Shown here: one piece after another, positions 51,650-63,891 of the stretch
Layout: each line of letters begins with the position of its first letter
How positions within the stretch are numbered: the stretch's first letter is position 1
Assembly: GCA_902591925.1 (NCBI GenBank)
Contig: CACJCN010000004.1
Coordinates: forward strand, 92,869-156,868
DNA: 64,000 nucleotides
DNA from: an uncultured SAR86 cluster bacterium
GTDB lineage: Bacteria > Pseudomonadota > Gammaproteobacteria > Magnimaribacterales > D2472
Direction: 5' to 3'
The notes under the pieces: generated by a model
Told to the model about the DNA's origin: nothing
Databases searched by the model: none
Seen by the model: the letters and a program-made list of their open reading frames with translations, nothing else
Translations under genes and position numbers: made by a program

Positions 51650-51699
51650 TAGACAGATAAAGATCCAAATGCCTATAATAAGTCATTAAAACGCGTTTT
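51650..51699 (+). promoter_or_regulatory. Promoter and palindrome upstream of TonB receptor 1
   Basis: TAGACA-18-TATAAT followed by AAAACGCGTTTT. Confidence 0.5.
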
Positions 51700-54700: not shown

Positions 54701-54770
54701 TGGTTTCTACTCTGATATACACAGAGATGAAGGCAGACATTACTATCTTGATCTTAGAATGGATTTCTAA
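51714..54770 (+). CDS. TonB-dependent receptor
   Basis: Signal peptide, TonB box EEVVVVGS, plug NLRNMG..NTL.LLNGRR and RLEILRDGASAIYGADA, GNPDL.PE, terminal Phe. Confidence 0.93.
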   Translation: MKNLKYLFSLVLLLPLAVVAQESDDSDSEVEEVVVVGSQIKGASITDALPVTVLSADDIEALGVSDGDELIENVVEQGLNFFNEQEQASGGVNAGRGDTGAYNLRNMGVGNTLTLLNGRRMVNNAGYQTEFIGGDFVPTVTVNTNLIPTNGLDRLEILRDGASAIYGADAVAGVVNNVLETDYEGSSLSVRVTGYEHFDATNTDLSYKFGKAFNDGATNISVFARYRDRGRIKASEDERWYSQDYRRYLPDDSPFNVSAMRNTSTYGWFQLDLNSKYNGDFPWVAVKDGETELADASDPRGGAALCALPGAVNTGFGTCMFNTDLGDNRSNQRGMGDYRGEMQRSQVFVFTNHEFDNGVELFSEMGYYQSDSFRYISAGSFKSGMFSIPGNYYWFSQLPESIGFPTDKSVAIDGWRPFNLNREISVDKSSTRFLIGLRGTTNNGWDWETAIVNADAKSVDAAGNRITYEALYEQFYGAVATTSDAFNIFDTNWDTNNGDNILTTIYRRDKSTLDMIDFKISNDEVFNLPAGPVGMLIGFERRKETYTDDRDPYLDGTVQNQDCCGVTSPTRSHPFTSGVLGSSPTVDVYGVKRVQSAFMEMIVPVTEKMDAQIAVRNEDFSDTEATTVGRIALGYVVNDLVKLRASFSTAFRSPNILQINQPFVTRTGTRNDAVQEYRIYKNNNDVRPPSGSGFANDYTISNTLHFRLGNPDLLPEESDNATFGVVITPNDSLTVTVDSWSIEKDNTIGLFGRNNSSVYDLLLRIQQGIGGATTVAEMLAFCEGKNVLNNQFGKYALDGSYVLRDADPTASYDDDFFNAGICPAGQQDTITEPYQNLALRTVEGTDIAVYYDFETSIGDFSVTLQTSMTDKFEQTPSAKYQAVAAAVADGTLPPYTSIEGFGDLRNNENVGTDRKDTLRVNYRNGDWGASLSALRVGELLDNGVKSDDGQVYEIPSMTTANLSVYKKFTLNGNDARLRLMVRNIADERAPLADGFFGFYSDIHRDEGRHYYLDLRMDF

Positions 54771-54782
54771 AATCTTTAAATT

Positions 54783-54814
54783 AAAAAAGGGAGTTGTAAA
54801 ACTCCCTTTTTTTT
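54783..54814 (+). terminator. Intrinsic terminator after TonB receptor 1
   Basis: AAAAAAGGGAGTT-GTAA-AACTCCCTTTTTTTT. Confidence 0.9.
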
Positions 54815-54830
54815 ACTCTATAATAATTTA

Positions 54831-56267
54831 ATGGCTGCATACAAAAAGAAGGGATTTTCCATAGGAATAATAATATTTCTTTTCATGCAGTTTTCTCCAT
54901 CGCCAACTGGTCTGAGTGATATAGGATGGGATGTTGCTGCTGTTGCAGTCCTGATGGCTATTTGGTGGGCCACAGAAACAGTTCCAGTTGCAATAACAGC
55001 ACTATTACCATTAGCACTTTTTCCACTTTTGGGAGTTACAACTTTTGATAATGCTGCCTTGCCTTACGCCAATAAAAATATATATCTCTTTTTAGGAGGT
55101 TTTATGCTTGCTCTTGGTATTGAGAGCTCTGGATTGCATAAGAGAATTGCTTTAAAAATGATAATTTCTGTTGGTTCAAGTGGAAGAAAGCTAGTTGGCG
55201 GGTTTATGCTTGTTGCAGCTCTAATAAGTATGTGGGTGATGAATACTTCAACAACTTTAATGTTACTTCCTATTGGATTAGCTGTTTGTGGAGTAATGTC
55301 TGAGACAATTCCAGGGTTATCTGAAAAAGATAAATCAAATTTTGATACTGCTTTGCTTCTTGGAATTGCATATGCAGCAACAATTGGTGGCATGTCAACG
55401 TTGATTGGTACTGCTCCAAATATTGTCTTTAGTGCTTTCATGCAAGATACCTATGGTGTTGAGATCTCAATGTTTGATTGGATGATGCTAGGAGTTCCAT
55501 TAGCTTCAATTATGCTTTTTGGCGCGTGGACACTTCTAACAAAATATATATTTCCAATAAGCTTTAATGCTTCAACTGAAGCAAGAGAAGAGTTAAAAAC
55601 AATGCTTTTAAATATGGGAGAATTTTCCAAGGATGAAAAGAGAATTTCTATAATTTTTGGCTTTGCAGTTTTTGCTTGGGTATTCAGAACATTGCTTAAT
55701 AAGATTGATTTTTTATCCGGACTAACTGATGCTGGAATTGCAATTATTGCAGCTATTTTAATTTTTATGACACCATCTGCATCAAAAAAAGGTGATTTAC
55801 TTCAATGGGAGCGATCTAAAGATCTGCCATGGGGACTTTTAATTTTATTTGGCGGTGGTTTATCACTTGCTGCTCAAATAAGCACAAGTGGTCTTGGAAT
55901 TTGGATCGGAAATAGCCTGTTGGTTTTAAGTTCAGTTCCACCAGTATTACTAATCTTGGCAGTCGCAACCTTAATTATTTTCTTAACTGAAATTACAAGT
56001 AACGTGACTACTACAACAACTTTTTTACCTGTTTTTGGAGCTCTAGCAATTGCAATTGGTGTTTTGCCTGTTTCATTAACAGTCCCTGTTTGCCTTGCAG
56101 CAAGTTGTGCATTTATGCTTCCAGTTGCAACTCCACCAAATGCTATTGTTTATGGATCAAACAAGTTTACTATTGCAACAATGATGAGAGCTGGATTTGC
56201 GTTAAATATAATTGGCATACTAGTTGTGACAATATTTGCATATTATTTTGCCCCATTAATTTTTTAA
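54831..56267 (+). CDS. DASS/SLC13 sodium:dicarboxylate symporter
   Basis: WWATE, SMWVMNT, TLIGTAPN, TEITSN, AFMLPVATPPNA. Confidence 0.92.
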   Translation: MAAYKKKGFSIGIIIFLFMQFSPSPTGLSDIGWDVAAVAVLMAIWWATETVPVAITALLPLALFPLLGVTTFDNAALPYANKNIYLFLGGFMLALGIESSGLHKRIALKMIISVGSSGRKLVGGFMLVAALISMWVMNTSTTLMLLPIGLAVCGVMSETIPGLSEKDKSNFDTALLLGIAYAATIGGMSTLIGTAPNIVFSAFMQDTYGVEISMFDWMMLGVPLASIMLFGAWTLLTKYIFPISFNASTEAREELKTMLLNMGEFSKDEKRISIIFGFAVFAWVFRTLLNKIDFLSGLTDAGIAIIAAILIFMTPSASKKGDLLQWERSKDLPWGLLILFGGGLSLAAQISTSGLGIWIGNSLLVLSSVPPVLLILAVATLIIFLTEITSNVTTTTTFLPVFGALAIAIGVLPVSLTVPVCLAASCAFMLPVATPPNAIVYGSNKFTIATMMRAGFALNIIGILVVTIFAYYFAPLIF

Positions 56268-56270
56268 GTT

Positions 56271-57983
56271 TTGAGAAAAATATTAATTACAGTTTTTTTT
56301 GTTTCTTACTTAAATAGTACAGACTATATTGATTATCCTCATCCATTTCACCCAACCAAAAGCTTGAACGGGATGGTTGTGAGTCAGAATGCTCTTTCAT
56401 CAGATATTGGTATAAAAATTTTAGATATGGGAGGAAATGCTGTTGATGCAGCAGTCGCAGTTGGATTTTCTCTAGCAACCACTCTTCCAAGAGCTGGTAA
56501 TCTTGGTGGCGGCGGTTTTATGTTAATTTATTTAAAAGAAAGGGATGAAATATTTTATATAGATTATAGAAGTAAATCTCCTCGGAATTCTTCAATTGAA
56601 AAATTACTTGGCACTAAACAAATTCCTGATCGAAATTCTAAATTATGGGAGAGAGTTGATTATTCATATTTAGCCTCAGCTGTACCTGGAACAGTATATG
56701 GTTTACTAGAAGCGCATAAAAATTTTGGTAGATTAGAACTTCAAGAAATACTGAAACCAGTTATCGAACAGGCAGAAAATGGAGTGACAGTTACAAGCGA
56801 TTTGAATTATGTTATTGAGGTAACACCTCAGTTAAGAGCTGATAAAGAATCATATTCTATATTCTTTGATAATGACGAACCCTTAAAAGAATTCTCTGTT
56901 ATAAAAAGACCTGATTTGGCAAATACATTTAAAGAAATTTCAAAAAATGGTGTAAAAGGATTTTACGAGGGAGTCATCGCAGACAAGATTGTAAGTGCAA
57001 TGGAAAAAAATAATGGGTTAATTACTCATGAAGATTTAAAAAATTACAAATCTTTTTTTAGAATGCCGATTGCCATCAATTATAAAGGTCATAAAGTCTA
57101 TACTGCTGCTCCTCCTTCAGGTGGTGGAATTACTTTACTAACAGCTTTAGGGATTCTTAATAATATTGATATTAAAAAATATAAAAATGACTCTACCAAA
57201 ACATATCATTTTCTTGCAGAAGCGTTAAGAAGAGGGCACAACAACAGATCTCATTATGTTGGAGATCCAGAGTACTTTGACGTTCCAATAACTGAACTTC
57301 TTTCAATAGAAAGAATAAAAGAATTAATAAGCTCAATCGATTCTAATAAATCCAGCACAGTAGAAGATGTAATTGCATATAAACCAAGAAAAGAGAGCAA
57401 AGATACAACTCATTATTCAATTATTGATAAAGATGGAAACGCTGTTTCGAATACATATACTCTAGGCCTTTCTTTTGGTTCAGGAGTAACTATTCCAGAT
57501 ACAGGAATCTTAATGAATAGTCAGATGAATAATTTTGCATATAGATATGGCAATAAAGGCGATATTAGCAGAGGAGCAAGCCCTGGTAACAGGTTTGAAC
57601 CAGGTAAAAAACCAATGAGTACGATGGCCCCAACAATAGTATTTGATAAAAACAATGACTTGTTTTTAATAACTGGTTCTCCTGGTGGATCTGATATTCC
57701 TGCTGCAATTTTAAGAGTTATTACAGGTGTCATTGATTTTGAATTAGATATAGGTGAAGCGACAATGCTTCCAAGAATTCATAAAGATTGGCCATACGAA
57801 GGACTTGAGCATGAGAGGGCAGTAAGTAGAGATATTGTAAGGCGTCTTAAGAGTATGGGGCATAAAACCGAATATGAAATGACCATTGGAAGCACACAAA
57901 GTATTCATGTAGTTGATGGAGTTAACTATGGGTTTGCAGATCTCAGAAGACCTAATGCTGGAGTTGCAGTTCAGACTAATTGA
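56271..57983 (+). CDS. Gamma-glutamyltransferase-family Ntn hydrolase with altered acyl pocket
   Basis: GGNAVDAAVA, GGGGF, DYR, VPGTV, autocleavage D|TTHYS, GSPGG; probable signal peptide; pocket substitutions described in findings. Confidence 0.9.
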   Translation: MRKILITVFFVSYLNSTDYIDYPHPFHPTKSLNGMVVSQNALSSDIGIKILDMGGNAVDAAVAVGFSLATTLPRAGNLGGGGFMLIYLKERDEIFYIDYRSKSPRNSSIEKLLGTKQIPDRNSKLWERVDYSYLASAVPGTVYGLLEAHKNFGRLELQEILKPVIEQAENGVTVTSDLNYVIEVTPQLRADKESYSIFFDNDEPLKEFSVIKRPDLANTFKEISKNGVKGFYEGVIADKIVSAMEKNNGLITHEDLKNYKSFFRMPIAINYKGHKVYTAAPPSGGGITLLTALGILNNIDIKKYKNDSTKTYHFLAEALRRGHNNRSHYVGDPEYFDVPITELLSIERIKELISSIDSNKSSTVEDVIAYKPRKESKDTTHYSIIDKDGNAVSNTYTLGLSFGSGVTIPDTGILMNSQMNNFAYRYGNKGDISRGASPGNRFEPGKKPMSTMAPTIVFDKNNDLFLITGSPGGSDIPAAILRVITGVIDFELDIGEATMLPRIHKDWPYEGLEHERAVSRDIVRRLKSMGHKTEYEMTIGSTQSIHVVDGVNYGFADLRRPNAGVAVQTN

Positions 57984-61021: not shown

Positions 61022-61068
61022 AGCGTATTGCTATGCGCATAAATTTAAATAACTTACAGGGGAATTGT

Positions 61069-63891
61069 ATGTTTAAAATAAAAAATTATTTATTTGCAGT
61101 TCTTGTGCTTTCATTTGGTGTTTTAAATATCAATGTTGCAGCTCAAGAAGCATCTGCAGATGAAAATGTAGAAGAAGTTGTAATAACTGGTTCTAGGATA
61201 AAAAGAGATTCTTTGAATAGTGCCGCACAAGTTACAGTTATCACAAGTGAGGATATTGACGCTTCATCTGGATTGATAGCTGCCGACGTTCTTAGACAAT
61301 CCATATATAATTCTTTTGGATCCACTGCCCCAACAGCCGGTAGTAGCGCTATGAGTAACGCTACTATTAGTATGCGGGGACTGGGTTCTTCAAGAACTTT
61401 AATATTGATGGATGGTAGAAGAATGCCTGGTTCTCCACATCTTGGTGGATCTGGTGCAACTAACATCAACATGATACCTACTGTTGCAATTGACAGAATT
61501 GAAATATTGGCTGATGGAGCTTCATCAGTTTATGGATCTGATGCGATTGCTGGTGTTATCAATGTTATTACAAAAAAAGGTTTCGACGGAGCTGAATTCA
61601 ATTTCAGACGTGGAGATAGAGATAGAGATGATGGTGAAGAAAACTCAGTTTCTTTCCTTTATGGCGCTACTAATGACAAAGGTTATGTAACAGTAATGGT
61701 AGAGCATGATGAAAGAGATGAAATATACCTAAAAGATAGATGGTATACACAAGCAAGAGCCAACGATACTGATGGTGATGGCGTTGTGAACATGTATCAA
61801 GAATCTTATGGTATCAGTTGGTATTCTCAAAACCTTGCAGATCCTGTAACAGGTGATCTTTTTGCAGCACCTACATGTCCGGGTTCTATGGACAATCCAG
61901 TAGATGGATGGTGGGGACCTAATTTTGGTGGTGCAGTATTTGGTCAAGGTGGTACTGTTACTCCAACATATCCTGGTGCACAGCCAACTGGAATGTGCGG
62001 ATATGCTTGGGCTGACATTATGGTTGCTGATGCTGCAACATTTAGAGACAGCATAACAACTAACATTGAATACAATATCAATGATGATTTTTCATTATAT
62101 TCAAGAGTTAATCTTCTAAGAAACGAGTCTACTGGTAGGTTTGCTCCTCCAGCAGCTGGATATCCTGGAATTTTAGCTACAGATCCTGCTAACCCTTACG
62201 ATGAGCCAGTACAAGGCTATTGGAGATGGACAGGTATTGGTAACCGTGGCATGCACTTTGTTGATAACGGCATGGATGCAGTGTTCGAATTGACTTACAG
62301 AGTTAACGACAACATAGAGGTTGTTGCTGGTACCCAGTACAACAAATTTTATGGTACTGATATTGGTAGATATTACCTAGACTATGCTGGATTAGATTCT
62401 AATCTATATAACGATGAGCCATTTGGTTCAGAAGCTGGTTTAGCAGCTATGTCTGCAACTACTCTAGTTGAATACACAAATCACTACGAGAAACAAGATG
62501 TCGTTGTTCAGTTTGATAACGTTGCTGATTTACCAGGTGGATCAGTTCAAGCACTTGTTGGTGTTGAGCAAATTGAGAACAGATATTCAGCTGAATATGA
62601 CAAGCATTCAGAAGGTGGACTTGTAGGTGGTTCTGCTGGTAATTCAGGTTTTGGAAACAGAACTATTGATTCAATATTTGGTGAAGTTTTACTCCCAGTA
62701 ATGGATAATTTAGAAGTTACTGCGTCATTCAGAAGAGATGATTATTCTGATGTTGGTGAAGCTGATTCATTTAAGTTAGGTGCTTTATGGACTCCTGTAG
62801 AAGGTACTGTTGTTAAATTCAATACTGGTGAAGGATTCAGAGCTCCTACAATGGATGATTTATATGGAGCAACTACATTTAGTGCTAACACTGCAACTGA
62901 CTATGTTGCTTGTGCTGCTGCTGGTGTTTCTGCTGCAGATTGTTCATCAAAACAAATATCAACATTAATAACTGCTAATCCTAACTTAGGTCCTGAGACT
63001 TCTGAAGGATTCACAATGAGCGTAGAGCAAGATATGGGAATGCTTGTTGATGCACTAGATGGATTAACAGTCAGATTTGATTATTATGAAATTACAGTTA
63101 TGGATGCAATTTCATCAGTTAGTACTCAAGACGTAATGTGGAATGAGTATGTTGGTGGTTCAGCATTATCTAACACTGTTAATTTTTATGATTCAGATGG
63201 AGTTGGTTCAGATGGAAGTGCTGCTGGTAATCCAGTAGGTACTGGAACAGTTGGTGATGCATGTCCTGCTGGAGCAACATATTACAGTACTGTAGGTAAT
63301 GATCCTGCAATTTATTCAACAAGATCTTGTGCTAACGGTCGTGTAGACTATGTTGGTGCAGGTTTCACAAACGTTGGTGAAATTGAAGTTATTGGTTATG
63401 ACCTATTTGTAGGTTATATGAGAGATGTTGGTCCTGGTACCATGTCTGTTCAGGTAGATTACACTTCAATGGATGAATACAATACTGATTCATTTACAGG
63501 TAGTAACCAAACAACTAACAATGTTGGTTTCTCAGGTCAACCTGAAATGAGAAATAACATCACAGTTGGTTATGCTTGGGATGCATATAGCGTTGCATTA
63601 ACTCAGAGAACTATCGGAGGAGATTACTATCTCTCATCTGATGCTGAAACAGATGCACAAGGTAACCCAACAGGCGGAATTGTAAAAGATGGTGACATAC
63701 AAGATGATTACAGTGCTCTTGATCTTCAGATTAGAGCTGACCTAGGTAATTATGGTGTTGTTACATATGGAATGTTTAATGTTGAGGATAATGATCCTTT
63801 ACCAGGACGTAATAATAATTATGAAACCTACTTAGACCTTTACGGTAATTCAGGTTTAATTACATACGTCAAATGGAACATTAAGTTCTAA
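61069..63891 (+). CDS. TonB-dependent receptor
   Basis: CAGGGGA SD before ATG 61069; signal peptide, EEVVITGSRI, RGLGSSRTLILMDGRR, IDRIEILADGASSVYGSDA, terminal Phe. Confidence 0.93.
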   Translation: MFKIKNYLFAVLVLSFGVLNINVAAQEASADENVEEVVITGSRIKRDSLNSAAQVTVITSEDIDASSGLIAADVLRQSIYNSFGSTAPTAGSSAMSNATISMRGLGSSRTLILMDGRRMPGSPHLGGSGATNINMIPTVAIDRIEILADGASSVYGSDAIAGVINVITKKGFDGAEFNFRRGDRDRDDGEENSVSFLYGATNDKGYVTVMVEHDERDEIYLKDRWYTQARANDTDGDGVVNMYQESYGISWYSQNLADPVTGDLFAAPTCPGSMDNPVDGWWGPNFGGAVFGQGGTVTPTYPGAQPTGMCGYAWADIMVADAATFRDSITTNIEYNINDDFSLYSRVNLLRNESTGRFAPPAAGYPGILATDPANPYDEPVQGYWRWTGIGNRGMHFVDNGMDAVFELTYRVNDNIEVVAGTQYNKFYGTDIGRYYLDYAGLDSNLYNDEPFGSEAGLAAMSATTLVEYTNHYEKQDVVVQFDNVADLPGGSVQALVGVEQIENRYSAEYDKHSEGGLVGGSAGNSGFGNRTIDSIFGEVLLPVMDNLEVTASFRRDDYSDVGEADSFKLGALWTPVEGTVVKFNTGEGFRAPTMDDLYGATTFSANTATDYVACAAAGVSAADCSSKQISTLITANPNLGPETSEGFTMSVEQDMGMLVDALDGLTVRFDYYEITVMDAISSVSTQDVMWNEYVGGSALSNTVNFYDSDGVGSDGSAAGNPVGTGTVGDACPAGATYYSTVGNDPAIYSTRSCANGRVDYVGAGFTNVGEIEVIGYDLFVGYMRDVGPGTMSVQVDYTSMDEYNTDSFTGSNQTTNNVGFSGQPEMRNNITVGYAWDAYSVALTQRTIGGDYYLSSDAETDAQGNPTGGIVKDGDIQDDYSALDLQIRADLGNYGVVTYGMFNVEDNDPLPGRNNNYETYLDLYGNSGLITYVKWNIKF

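Follow-up and report, generated by a model that had tools for sequence, protein, structure and literature searches.

Why does the genome of a marine bacterium carry, directly behind the gene of a DASS-family carrier and downstream of a TonB-dependent receptor (TBDR) gene, a gamma-glutamyltransferase (GGT) homolog whose pocket lacks the residues that bind the substrate amine? The locus is situated in a stretch of 64,000 nucleotides from an uncultured SAR86 cluster bacterium (the window); its features are compiled in Table 1. A pocket unable to grip a free amino group, a receptor of its own and an acid importer indicate that the nutrient harvested is probably a different amide. In our preferred reading, with a probability of roughly 0.4, the three genes together provide a scavenging route, leading from the outer membrane to the cytoplasm, for gamma-glutamyl-type amides without a free ammonium group, most likely N-acylated gamma-D-glutamyl peptides of peptidoglycan, with uptake of the acid product.

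Table 1. Features of the TBDR, DASS and variant GGT locus (positions in the window; residue equivalents in E. coli GGT numbering)
Feature	Position	Strand	Basis
Promoter-like site 5' of the TBDR gene: TAGACA, 18 nt spacer, TATAAT	51650..51679	+	consensus 11/12
TBDR gene, 1018 aa	51714..54770	+	Pfam plug and barrel domains
Stem-loop followed by U run, between TBDR and DASS genes, terminator- or attenuator-like	54783..54812	+	fold energy versus shuffles
DASS-family Na+-coupled anion symporter gene, 478 aa	54831..56267	+	ORF, profile match
Variant GGT gene (TTG start) for an Ntn hydrolase precursor of 570 aa	56271..57983	+	ORF, profiles, alignment, model
Signal-peptide-like N-terminus, about residues 1-16, putative cleavage site	56271..56318	+	basic n-region, then hydrophobic core
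R100-S101 = R114 (carboxylate anchor, retained) and E115 (lost)	56568..56573	+	alignment
T379 = T391, nucleophile, residue 1 of the small subunit	57405..57407	+	alignment
G399 (GGC) = N411	57465..57467	+	alignment, codon read from DNA
Q418-M-N420-N421 = Q430-M-D432-D433	57522..57533	+	alignment
Remodelled lid-loop region, residues 423-440; I432 = Y444	57537..57590	+	alignment, model
S450-T451 = S462-S463	57618..57623	+	alignment
G472-G473 = G483-G484, oxyanion hole	57684..57689	+	alignment

The ORF coordinates confirmed the 3-nt gap between the DASS stop (ending at 56267) and the variant GGT start (56271) that had been reported before; both genes share the same frame. The promoter-like site was the top consensus match of the region (11/12), and promoter-like matches in the region overall were not enriched compared with shuffles. 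The template-switch-oligo-like loose letters of one RNA-library contig (X6) start at 51685, 6 nt past the -10 hexamer, which, as one contig from one run, is a weak hint in favour of this site. The stem-loop (-16.7 kcal/mol, z -4.72; equally stable shuffles 0/200) was not among the output of a simple terminator scan; it is crossed by an RNA-library contig (X1 record 5, 54708-55250), so that read-through is possible. Four RNA libraries from as many studies yielded contigs that covered all three genes and bridged both junctions, although such contigs cannot prove a single transcript and may derive from DNA carry-over.

The variant protein scored 484.7 bits against PF01019 (G_glu_transpept, Ntn-hydrolase family T03; cut-off 27) and 488.1 bits against the NCBIfam profile TIGR00066 (g_glut_trans; equivalog cut-off 357.85), and P0115 is annotated as "gamma-glutamyltransferase" in one source, as was to be expected from the earlier suspicion that automated pipelines would label the gene plain ggt. 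The top Foldseek match of its AlphaFold2 model (pLDDT 87.6) was 2E0W, the precursor of E. coli GGT (E 2.1e-51, rmsd 2.4 Å, TM 0.93 when normalised to the target length); pLDDT dropped below 50 at residues 1-24 and in the linker 369-376 just before T379, and was about 70 in the lid-loop region. Of the features of a presumed autoprocessing Ntn hydrolase, the conserved Thr and this low-confidence linker are visible. Signal-peptide-like N-termini, conserved in kind in 17 orthologs and homologs, point to an exported enzyme, in line with the sequence-only reading. The structure 2NLZ ("cephalosporin acylase") matched with E 3.2e-47 and represents a distant YwrD-like chain.

Residue equivalents were obtained from a phmmer alignment with 2E0W (E 1.9e-116; free of gaps between the nucleophile and residue 433), E. 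coli numbering being the PDB chain index plus 24. With E. coli Ggt (PDB 2DBU, 2DBX, 2E0W) the variant shares family, fold, the form of an exported precursor, the Thr nucleophile, the second Thr T409 (T397 of the variant), the oxyanion Gly-Gly and the alpha-carboxylate anchors R114/S462; it differs by the exchanges E115S, N411G, D432N, D433N, Y444I and S463T, with Gln at position 430. The sequence-only reading, which had been made by eye, thus proved correct both in the catalytic residues that it listed as kept and in the replacements of N411, D433, Y444 and S463: position 433 is occupied by Asn, not Asp (N421, codon AAT at 57531-57533), and E115S and D432N are added here. In canonical GGTs (n=121), N411, D433 and E115 were found in 100%, D432 in 93% and E430 in 90% of the sequences. 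By comparison, position 115 was Ser, Gly or Thr in 82/82 members of the variant clade, the lid loop was variable or shortened across the clade, and region 516-521 differed as well. The G/Q/N/N combination was retained in 119 of 120 close homologs among the matches listed (88-100% identity), and G and N in 28/28 loci that were read in further genomes of the order, the canonical paralogs of which showed N/E/D/D. At the level of aligned sequences, the remodelling of the amine pocket, with a neutralised ammonium-binding acidic cluster and the lid Tyr lost, is confirmed.

Asn433 and loss of the lid Tyr are also shared with the class IV (glutaryl-7-ACA) acylases and with engineered E. coli GGT (D433N; D433N-Y444A-G484A); according to the accessible part of PMC8062742, these exchanges open GGT to acyl groups without alpha-ammonium, Asn433 conferring GL-7-ACA acylase activity on the E. 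coli and B. subtilis enzymes and loss of Y444 raising it. The variant might therefore be a glutaryl-, 2-oxoglutaryl- or succinyl-amide hydrolase that releases glutarate, 2-oxoglutarate or succinate from a compound taken up by the receptor, e.g. a carboxylate siderophore, for import of the diacid by DASS. This alternative, close to what the sequence-only reading had proposed, appears unlikely. Four acidic or polar amine ligands are indeed gone from the pocket; however, it keeps a glutamate-length geometry, and no result pointed to a succinyl (C4) acyl group. In the same accessible text, D433N alone yields a weak acylase that keeps 82% of gamma-glutamyl hydrolysis, and the class IV acylases prefer GGT substrates (PMC8062742), so that Asn433, although present as stated, is by itself no predictor of a glutaryl amidase. 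Moreover, the variants go beyond the class IV acylases, which were compared by description only, in E115S, N411G, D432N/R and conserved partner genes.

Phylogenetically, the variants grouped as a single clade of 82 leaves with an SH-like support of 0.999; Gly, Ser or Thr at 411 was combined with N433 in 81 of these leaves. A canonical GGT paralog (N/E/D/D/F/SS) is present in the same 1.2-Mb genome as the variant, and in family f2 both occur in tandem; this coexistence in a small genome argues for a division of labour and not for drift. The genomic context was compared for 72 non-redundant variant loci (clade A 21, B 7, C 43, D 1) and 72 identically annotated canonical GGT loci. A TBDR gene was located within 6 kb in 61 of the 72 variant loci (A 20/21, B 5/7, C 36/43, D 0/1) and in just two of the canonical loci, counts to be read with the reservation that the reference set was derived from variant loci, where detection is favoured accordingly, and that related genomes are non-independent samples. 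In 10 of the 11 variant loci without TBDR the contig ends at the expected receptor position. Within the order, TBDR, DASS and variant GGT occurred together in 17/17 larger regions from three families. The window TBDR (PF07715 plug, 53 bits; PF00593 barrel, 62.9 bits) aligned along its entire length with the receptors of nine variant loci in Alphaproteobacteria (30-33% identity, 353-412 bits), whereas the remaining TBDR-like ORFs in the window's genome reached at most 109 bits. The TBDR, which the sequence-only reading had not mentioned, is the main and constant partner of the variant GGT, and the receptors are mutually related across classes. The variant GGTs thus represent a separate, old subfamily in Gamma- and Alphaproteobacteria with its own receptor and acid carrier, a linkage that canonical GGT loci do not possess.

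These observations also bear on the simplest explanation, i.e. that the variant is an ordinary periplasmic gamma-glutamyl hydrolase of glutathione and gamma-glutamyl peptides, supplying sulfur or nitrogen, in which the exchanges merely abolish transpeptidation. The score above the equivalog cut-off would suit such a role, as would the E. coli D433N enzyme, described in the available portion of PMC8062742 as devoid of transfer while hydrolysing, and the statement there that class IV acylases prefer GGT substrates. In addition, the SAR86 genome papers, as far as their accessible text goes, read ggt as glutathione use by sulfate-non-assimilating cells (PMC3358033, PMC11582366), a group to which the window's genome presumably belongs. 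Set against this, the genome retains the canonical paralog, at least five pocket positions have changed jointly and are fixed across an old clade, and the clade has co-inherited a receptor that canonical loci almost always lack. Glutathione (307 Da) should need no TBDR. We consider the ordinary hydrolase quite unlikely.

The cargo of the receptor could be a siderophore, in favour of the diacid-amide alternative: receptor size and the ECF sigma/FecR pairs adjoining two clade-A loci (L061, L075) are reminiscent of siderophore systems, and an exported esterase-like protein encoded in the f2 operon would suit a compound with ester and amide bonds, for which we take vibrioferrin-type molecules to be candidates. 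Apart from the plug domain, however, the window TBDR had no close solved siderophore-receptor relative. The beta-lactamase-fold partner in f2 is nearest to family VIII carboxylesterases rather than to DD-peptidases, which speaks against the preferred peptidoglycan reading.

The window DASS protein (Pfam Na_sulph_symp, 256 bits; TIGR00785 (dass), 292.1 bits, cut-off 198.6) is the sole full-length DASS of its genome (tblastn), and its nearest solved proteins are SLC13A2/A5/A3 and VcINDY (E 7.5e-71 to 4.8e-61), i.e. Na+-dicarboxylate carriers, as the proposed role of a dicarboxylate-type importer and the diacid-amide alternative would have it. DASS carriers are known to accept di- and tricarboxylates, not peptides, a point against the preferred reading. 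The linkage of DASS with the variant held within the order (28/28 loci) and in clade C (39/43; an inner-membrane acid or amino-acid carrier of any kind was adjacent in 40/43), but not outside the low-GC clade (clade A 0/21, clade B 1/7), where non-homologous carriers take its place: DctA/GltP-type SDF, GltS, APC and AbgT. GltS and the APC amino-acid permease speak against a plain diacid.

The sister clades contain further genes that a plain diacid product would leave unaccounted for. Near variant GGTs of clades A and B, homologs of D-aminoacylase (1M7J, E 3.8e-64 and 7.4e-86) and N-acyl-D-glutamate deacylase (3GIP, E 4.7e-42 and 1.7e-68) were encoded, with signal-peptide-like N-termini in 8/8 cases read; D-amino-acid-dehydrogenase-like genes were likewise found there. 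Above their respective cut-offs of 480 and 400 bits, DgcN (506 bits) and DgcA (415.7 and 427.5 bits) adjoin variants, both together at locus L165 and DgcA at L164; in the accessible text of PMC12363236 and PMC10845958, the two constitute a D-glutamate pathway. At the f2-type loci L130 and L247, within the order, a LysR and a D-amino-acid-dehydrogenase-like gene adjoin the receptor. Glutamate and amino-acid carriers, together with D-amino-acid genes, in sister lineages favour a glutamate-type product over glutarate or succinate, and the earlier proposal of a glutarate- or succinate-type product is weakened accordingly. Any D-type gene occurred within 6 kb in 10 of 28 leaves of clades A and B, with 4 such matches in the 72 canonical control loci, in favour of the preferred reading of a gamma-D-glutamyl peptide route. 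Against this reading, D-type genes were near only one of 43 clade-C leaves, and the window's genome (93% complete) contained neither DgcN nor DgcA, no D-amino-acid dehydrogenase above cut-off and no D-aminoacylase-like protein. Its one candidate for the fate of N-acyl-D-glutamate is a D-amino-acid-transaminase-like gene below cut-offs.

A glutamate-type product might also arise from oligo-gamma-glutamates, in which each amino group is acylated by the preceding unit: the variant would then be an endo- or exo-hydrolase of poly-gamma-glutamate fragments, folyl- or p-aminobenzoyl-polyglutamate or F420 tails, with uptake of glutamate or N-acyl-glutamate. Arg at position 432 (28/82 members of the variant clade) or 446 (30/82) could bind a neighbouring carboxylate; the D-/L-Glu catabolic genes and glutamate carriers would fit; and relatives of the E. 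coli abgABT system for p-aminobenzoyl-glutamate utilisation (amidohydrolase plus N-acyl-glutamate carrier) accompany some variants. Exported M20D amidohydrolases, with an aminobenzoyl-glutamate utilisation protein among their solved relatives (E 6.9e-17), were encoded beside 10/43 clade-C and 2/21 clade-A leaves. Their best match, however, was HmrA and not AbgB; an AbgT-family carrier adjoins the variant in a single locus (L047), which lacks a receptor; and homologs of both AbgT and M20D were absent from the window's genome (tblastn, protein search). The abgABT system itself includes neither a GGT nor a receptor, and poly-gamma-glutamate is not known to us as a common substrate in the open ocean. 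This explanation was judged very unlikely.

In the preferred route, the dedicated TBDR would pass a compound that is scarce or bulky to the periplasm, where the exported variant GGT would hydrolyse, rather than transfer, a gamma-glutamyl-type amide with no free ammonium at the 2-position, and the Na+-coupled DASS protein would then import the acidic product. The substrates would be stem-peptide fragments of peptidoglycan cut at the bond between gamma-D-Glu and the diamino acid, and the imported product N-acyl-glutamate or glutamate; this assignment leans on gene neighbourhoods of homologs with just 39-41% identity. The combination of TBDR, exported hydrolase and inner-membrane carrier follows the logic of TBDR-centred nutrient utilisation loci, but with an amidase of the GGT family as hydrolase and an acidic amide, instead of a glycan or metal chelate, as proposed cargo; no description of such a locus was found in the literature searched. 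MpaA and YcjG of E. coli serve peptidoglycan-peptide recycling, and known gamma-D-Glu-mDAP peptidases have other folds (M14, NlpC/P60); we know of no GGT-fold enzyme for this bond. The proposed job likewise consists of cutting the gamma-D-Glu bond and passing D-Glu on, as in peptidoglycan recycling and D-glutamate catabolism, whose DgcN, DgcA and D-aminoacylase homologs share clusters with clade-A/B variants and whose Dgc genes the window's genome lacks.

Annotations and, in their accessible parts, published SAR86 genome papers (PMC3358033, PMC11582366) treat every ggt as glutathione-cleaving, and automated names hide the variant subfamily. If its cargo were a diacid amide, the variants would be natural glutaryl-type acylases of biotechnological interest. 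If, on the other hand, gamma-D-glutamyl peptides of peptidoglycan were harvested, genes could be named for a flux discussed for long, the turnover of D-amino-acid-rich dissolved organic nitrogen, with a metagenomic marker so far masked by automated names and a new reaction type for the GGT family. Whether the variant is the first GGT-fold gamma-D-glutamyl amidase, acting as the periplasmic step of a receptor-fed harvest of stem peptides in very abundant ocean bacteria and in soil and freshwater alphaproteobacteria, and thereby as a defined sink for dissolved organic nitrogen rich in D-glutamate and supposed to be refractory, is doubtful at present, though it merits consideration. As 41 genomes of the order gave no match for a glutamate racemase, D-glutamate for the bacterium's own wall might be salvaged by this route as well.

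The gamma-glutamyltransferase (GGT) gene of the window, which has a low G+C content throughout (about 30-37%), starts 3 nt behind the stop codon of the DASS gene and in the same frame; upstream of both lies a TonB-dependent receptor gene, which is preceded by the top promoter-like site of the region. The sequence-only reading, according to which GGT variant and DASS carrier form a module for the scavenging of glutaryl- and succinyl-amides, stands with regard to this architecture; it had missed the receptor, and its proposed substrates are not favored here. The convergent gene downstream gave no Pfam match and weak matches to PRK08257-type "acetyl-CoA acetyltransferase" models (233 bits, cut-off 654); in sister genomes, a gene for an exported M20D amidohydrolase, lost in the window, is located between GGT and the homolog of this gene. 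The second receptor is related to the studied one in the plug domain alone (109 bits), and the TonB-dependent receptor-like ORFs of the window's own genome (G000) are few and divergent from one another.

Features of the receptor/DASS/GGT locus and its downstream neighbors.
Feature	Position	Strand	Evidence or remark
TonB-dependent receptor (plug + barrel), 1018 aa	51714-54770	+	Pfam, NCBIfam
Stable stem-loop with U run	between receptor and DASS genes		-16.7 kcal/mol, z -4.7
DASS Na+-coupled anion symporter, 478 aa	54831-56267	+	292 bits (cut-off 198.6)
Gamma-glutamyltransferase, 570 aa, TTG start	56271-57983	+	TIGR00066, 488 bits (cut-off 357.85)
Convergent gene, 506 aa	57971-59491	-	overlaps GGT stop by 13 nt
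Second large TonB-dependent receptor	61033-63891	+	3 kb downstream

RNA libraries (20 runs from 16 studies) contained a third to half of the words sampled from the stretch. Contigs of four runs from four studies cover receptor, DASS and variant GGT and bridge both junctions (54770/54831 by record 5 of run X1; 56267/56271 by record 7 of X1 and record 14 of run X2), a result compatible with separate transcripts or with DNA in the library; read depth is no basis for ranking the genes, and uncovered bins carry no meaning. Two contigs of the poly(A)-type library X6 start with template-switch-oligo-like letters, one at 51685, 6 nt past the -10 hexamer of the promoter-like site that precedes the receptor, the other at 54955 inside the DASS ORF (Met42 codon).

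The alignment to the E. coli GGT precursor 2E0W (phmmer, E 1.9e-116; E. coli residue number = PDB chain index + 24) was ungapped from the nucleophile to position 433, and the residue identities were confirmed at codon level in the DNA. Retained are T379 (E. coli T391), T397 (T409), R100 (R114), S450 (S462) and G472-G473 (G483-G484), and Q418 corresponds to Q430; replaced are G399 (N411), N420 (D432), N421 (D433), I432 (Y444) and T451 (S463). The AlphaFold2 model (pLDDT 87.6; low confidence for signal peptide, lid and the linker ahead of the Thr) had its best match in 2E0W (TM 0.93 by target length) and, as a prediction, confirms the fold only. Measured against the 2E0W alignment, the codons and this model, the residue observations of the sequence-only reading proved right in every item. 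The protein thus passes the tests for the GGT family (profile, catalytic residues, fold), but lacks the amine-ligand features by which canonical GGT is defined; Asn433 and the lost lid Tyr are shared, by description, with class IV cephalosporin acylases and engineered GL-7-ACA acylases. In a comparison of 82 variant-clade with 121 canonical sequences, E115 was Glu in 100% of the latter (n=121) versus Ser, Gly or Thr in 82/82 variants, residue 430 was Glu in 90% versus Gln in 72/82, and residue 432 was Asp in 93% versus Asn (43/82) or Arg (28/82); residues 516-521 differed too. The whole acidic cluster is gone from the pocket, which is more than the exchange of a single residue.

Of 150 proteins, each representing a 50%-identity cluster, 10 carried G411/N433 and three S411/N433. 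In a FastTree phylogeny of 225 GGTs with the YwrD-like paralog as root (built after removal of near-duplicates, of sequences with <450 aligned residues and of representatives shorter than 500 or longer than 700 aa), the variants formed one clade of 82 leaves (support 0.999), of which 81 bear the (G/S/T)411 + N433 signature; one further protein, P0259, bears it and falls outside the clade. The clade comprises the mostly high-GC subclade A (25 leaves, including named Sphingomonadaceae, Caulobacter and Phenylobacterium records), subclade B (nine leaves), the low-GC subclade C with the GGT of the window (45 leaves) and the small subclade D (three leaves); in high-GC loci, genes were identified from a scan of every long ORF. 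In the sample of 400 other genomes of the phylum, the variant is rare: a strict DNA motif, blind to S/T411 and non-QM forms, matched two of them. General GGT motif patterns yielded seven variant-type loci and one M/N form in 80 among the matches listed. Profile A1 was discarded as a means of selecting variants, canonical GGTs scoring high as well (variant-like in 4/29 top loci from other genomes). Another GGT type (E411/Q430/T432/D433, "EQTD"), which groups separately from the variant clade, adjoins the variant GGT in 5/21 clade-A loci (L164, L166, L216, L225, L244).

G000 (1.2 Mb, 93% complete) has three GGT-family genes, i.e. the variant, a canonical one (N/E/D/D, lid Phe, SS) and a distant YwrD-like one. 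G/Q/N/N was kept in 119 of the 120 listed close homologs, and both G and N in all 28 variant loci read among 40 relatives of the order; with the canonical paralog kept alongside, this constancy argues against drift of the pocket. The variant was present in 18/24 genomes of genus g1 (the six without it being 75-87% complete), in 5/5 of family f4 and in 5/6 of family f2; the five genomes of family f3 had canonical GGT only. DASS adjoins the variant GGT in 28/28 loci, and the gene order receptor, DASS, variant GGT recurs in 17/17 larger regions, the receptor always being the best match of that of the window, even with different flanking genes. In most g1 genomes, an exported M20D amidohydrolase is convergent to the variant GGT. 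The f2 variant follows in tandem a canonical GGT and an exported esterase-like protein, the three genes forming a same-strand set convergent to receptor and DASS (L126-L130, plus metagenome loci such as L171, L217, L236). The esterase-like protein has a beta-lactamase fold with SxxK motif; a function as DD-peptidase was rejected, family VIII carboxylesterases being the nearest relatives of known structure, and the protein gives no support to a wall-peptide reading.

Across the variant clade, 72 non-redundant loci were annotated by BLAST against a reference set of Pfam-/NCBIfam-checked neighbors (see table).

Genes within 6 kb of the variant GGT by subclade; the reference set was drawn from variant loci, and related genomes are not independent samples.
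Gene	A	B	C	D
TonB-dependent receptor	20/21	5/7	36/43	0/1
DASS	0/21	1/7	39/43	0/1
D-aminoacylase-like	5/21	2/7	0/43	0/1
D-amino-acid-dehydrogenase-like	6/21	0/7	1/43	0/1

In 10 of the 11 receptor-less loci, the contig ends at the expected place of the receptor. Elsewhere, DASS is replaced by carriers of the DctA/GltP-type SDF family (A 4, C 2), GltS (A 1), an APC permease (A 1) or AbgT (D 1). Among 72 canonical GGT loci annotated alike as control, a receptor was found in 2/72, and the four D-type reference families gave four matches in all. The receptor of the window matched those beside variant GGTs of nine alphaproteobacterial loci over the full length (30-33% identity, 353-412 bits), compared with at most 109 bits for other receptor-like ORFs of G000; receptor and variant GGT thus form an old, co-inherited pair, the strongest argument for transferring functional hints from one clade to another. 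The gammaproteobacterial locus L166 has a receptor unrelated to that of the window.

Such hints come from the clusters of clades A and B. They encode homologs of D-aminoacylase/N-acyl-D-glutamate deacylase (E 3.8e-64 and 7.4e-86 to 1M7J; 4.7e-42 and 1.7e-68 to 3GIP) with signal-peptide-like N-termini in 8/8 homologs read, D-amino-acid-dehydrogenase-like proteins and, above NCBIfam equivalog cut-offs, DgcA in two genomes and DgcN in one of these; some of the clusters further contain GltS, an APC permease, a D-threonine-aldolase-like gene, peptidases of the S58, S9 and M24 families and a second GGT of "E411" type. According to passages of the respective papers, DgcN-DgcA constitute a route from D-glutamate to L-glutamate (PMC12363236, PMC10845958), and members of the D-acylase family act stereospecifically on N-acyl-D-amino acids, 3GIP on N-acyl-D-glutamate (PMC12149444). 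Taken together, these genes agree with the import of a compound in which D-glutamate is acylated at its amino group and bears an amide at its gamma-carboxyl. N-acyl-D-glutamate deacylase (3GIP) accepts L-Xaa-D-Glu dipeptides as well, and D-Glu is carried by E. coli GltS; the commonest compound with an N-acylated D-glutamate and a gamma-carboxyl amide is the peptidoglycan stem peptide. We infer that an N-acylated gamma-glutamyl donor would require just such a neutral, opened amine pocket. The variants constitute a distinct GGT subfamily, with N-acylated gamma-D-glutamyl peptides as leading candidate substrate. In two alphaproteobacterial genomes (L164, L165), the variant GGT cluster is followed downstream by the same trio of genes, for a DHDPS-family protein, a short-chain dehydrogenase and an RraA-like aldolase; that these break down the diaminopimelate half of a stem peptide is speculation only.

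Against a carry-over to the window stands the finding that D-type genes are near only 1/43 of the clade-C leaves, and that in G000 (93% complete) neither DgcN, DgcA nor D-amino-acid dehydrogenase was detected above cut-off, nor was any D-aminoacylase-like or M20D protein found; two f2-type loci have LysR and a dehydrogenase-like gene beside the receptor. This absence, the dicarboxylate-type DASS of the window and the properties of the D433N exchange keep three other readings alive. Hydrolysis of diacid amides (glutaryl-, 2-oxoglutaryl- or succinyl-amides) would agree with the carrier, but is unlikely; in the relevant passages of PMC8062742, D433N yields only weak glutaryl acylase activity and keeps most gamma-glutamyl hydrolysis. 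The latter would suit an ordinary gamma-glutamyl hydrolase, a reading that we consider less probable still. Least likely of the three is an oligo-gamma-glutamate hydrolase.

With respect to the supply of D-glutamate, glutamate racemase (PF01177) was above cut-off in 0/41 genomes of the order (22/41 at least 90% complete), weak matches being PanB-like proteins by eye, and TIGR00067 had no match at E<=1 in G000. A 275-aa gene of G000 (C1:96706-97533, minus strand) has D-amino-acid transaminase as best match (197 and 184 bits, below the cut-offs of 320 and 277) and may supply D-Glu; given its presence, D-glutamate auxotrophy was set aside. The MurD of the dcw cluster, outside the window (G000 C3:70188-71216), has 342 aa only and covers model positions 3-206 and 319-436 of 441 (192.8 bits, cut-off 211.95), so that some 110 residues are apparently lacking from its middle.

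SAR86 genome papers, in the passages concerned, read ggt as glutathione use (PMC3358033, PMC11582366); G000 is similar to the SAR86 genomes in size, G+C content and wealth of TonB receptors and probably belongs with them. A GGT phylogeny of 47 sequences leaves position 433 unmentioned, and library searches revealed no description of a GGT clade that is linked to a receptor or devoid of the amine pocket. New are the single clade of the variants, the co-inherited receptor and the loss of the entire acidic cluster, together with the control against canonical GGT loci and the link to D-amino-acid genes. In an uptake route that starts at the receptor, the variant GGT would take the periplasmic step.
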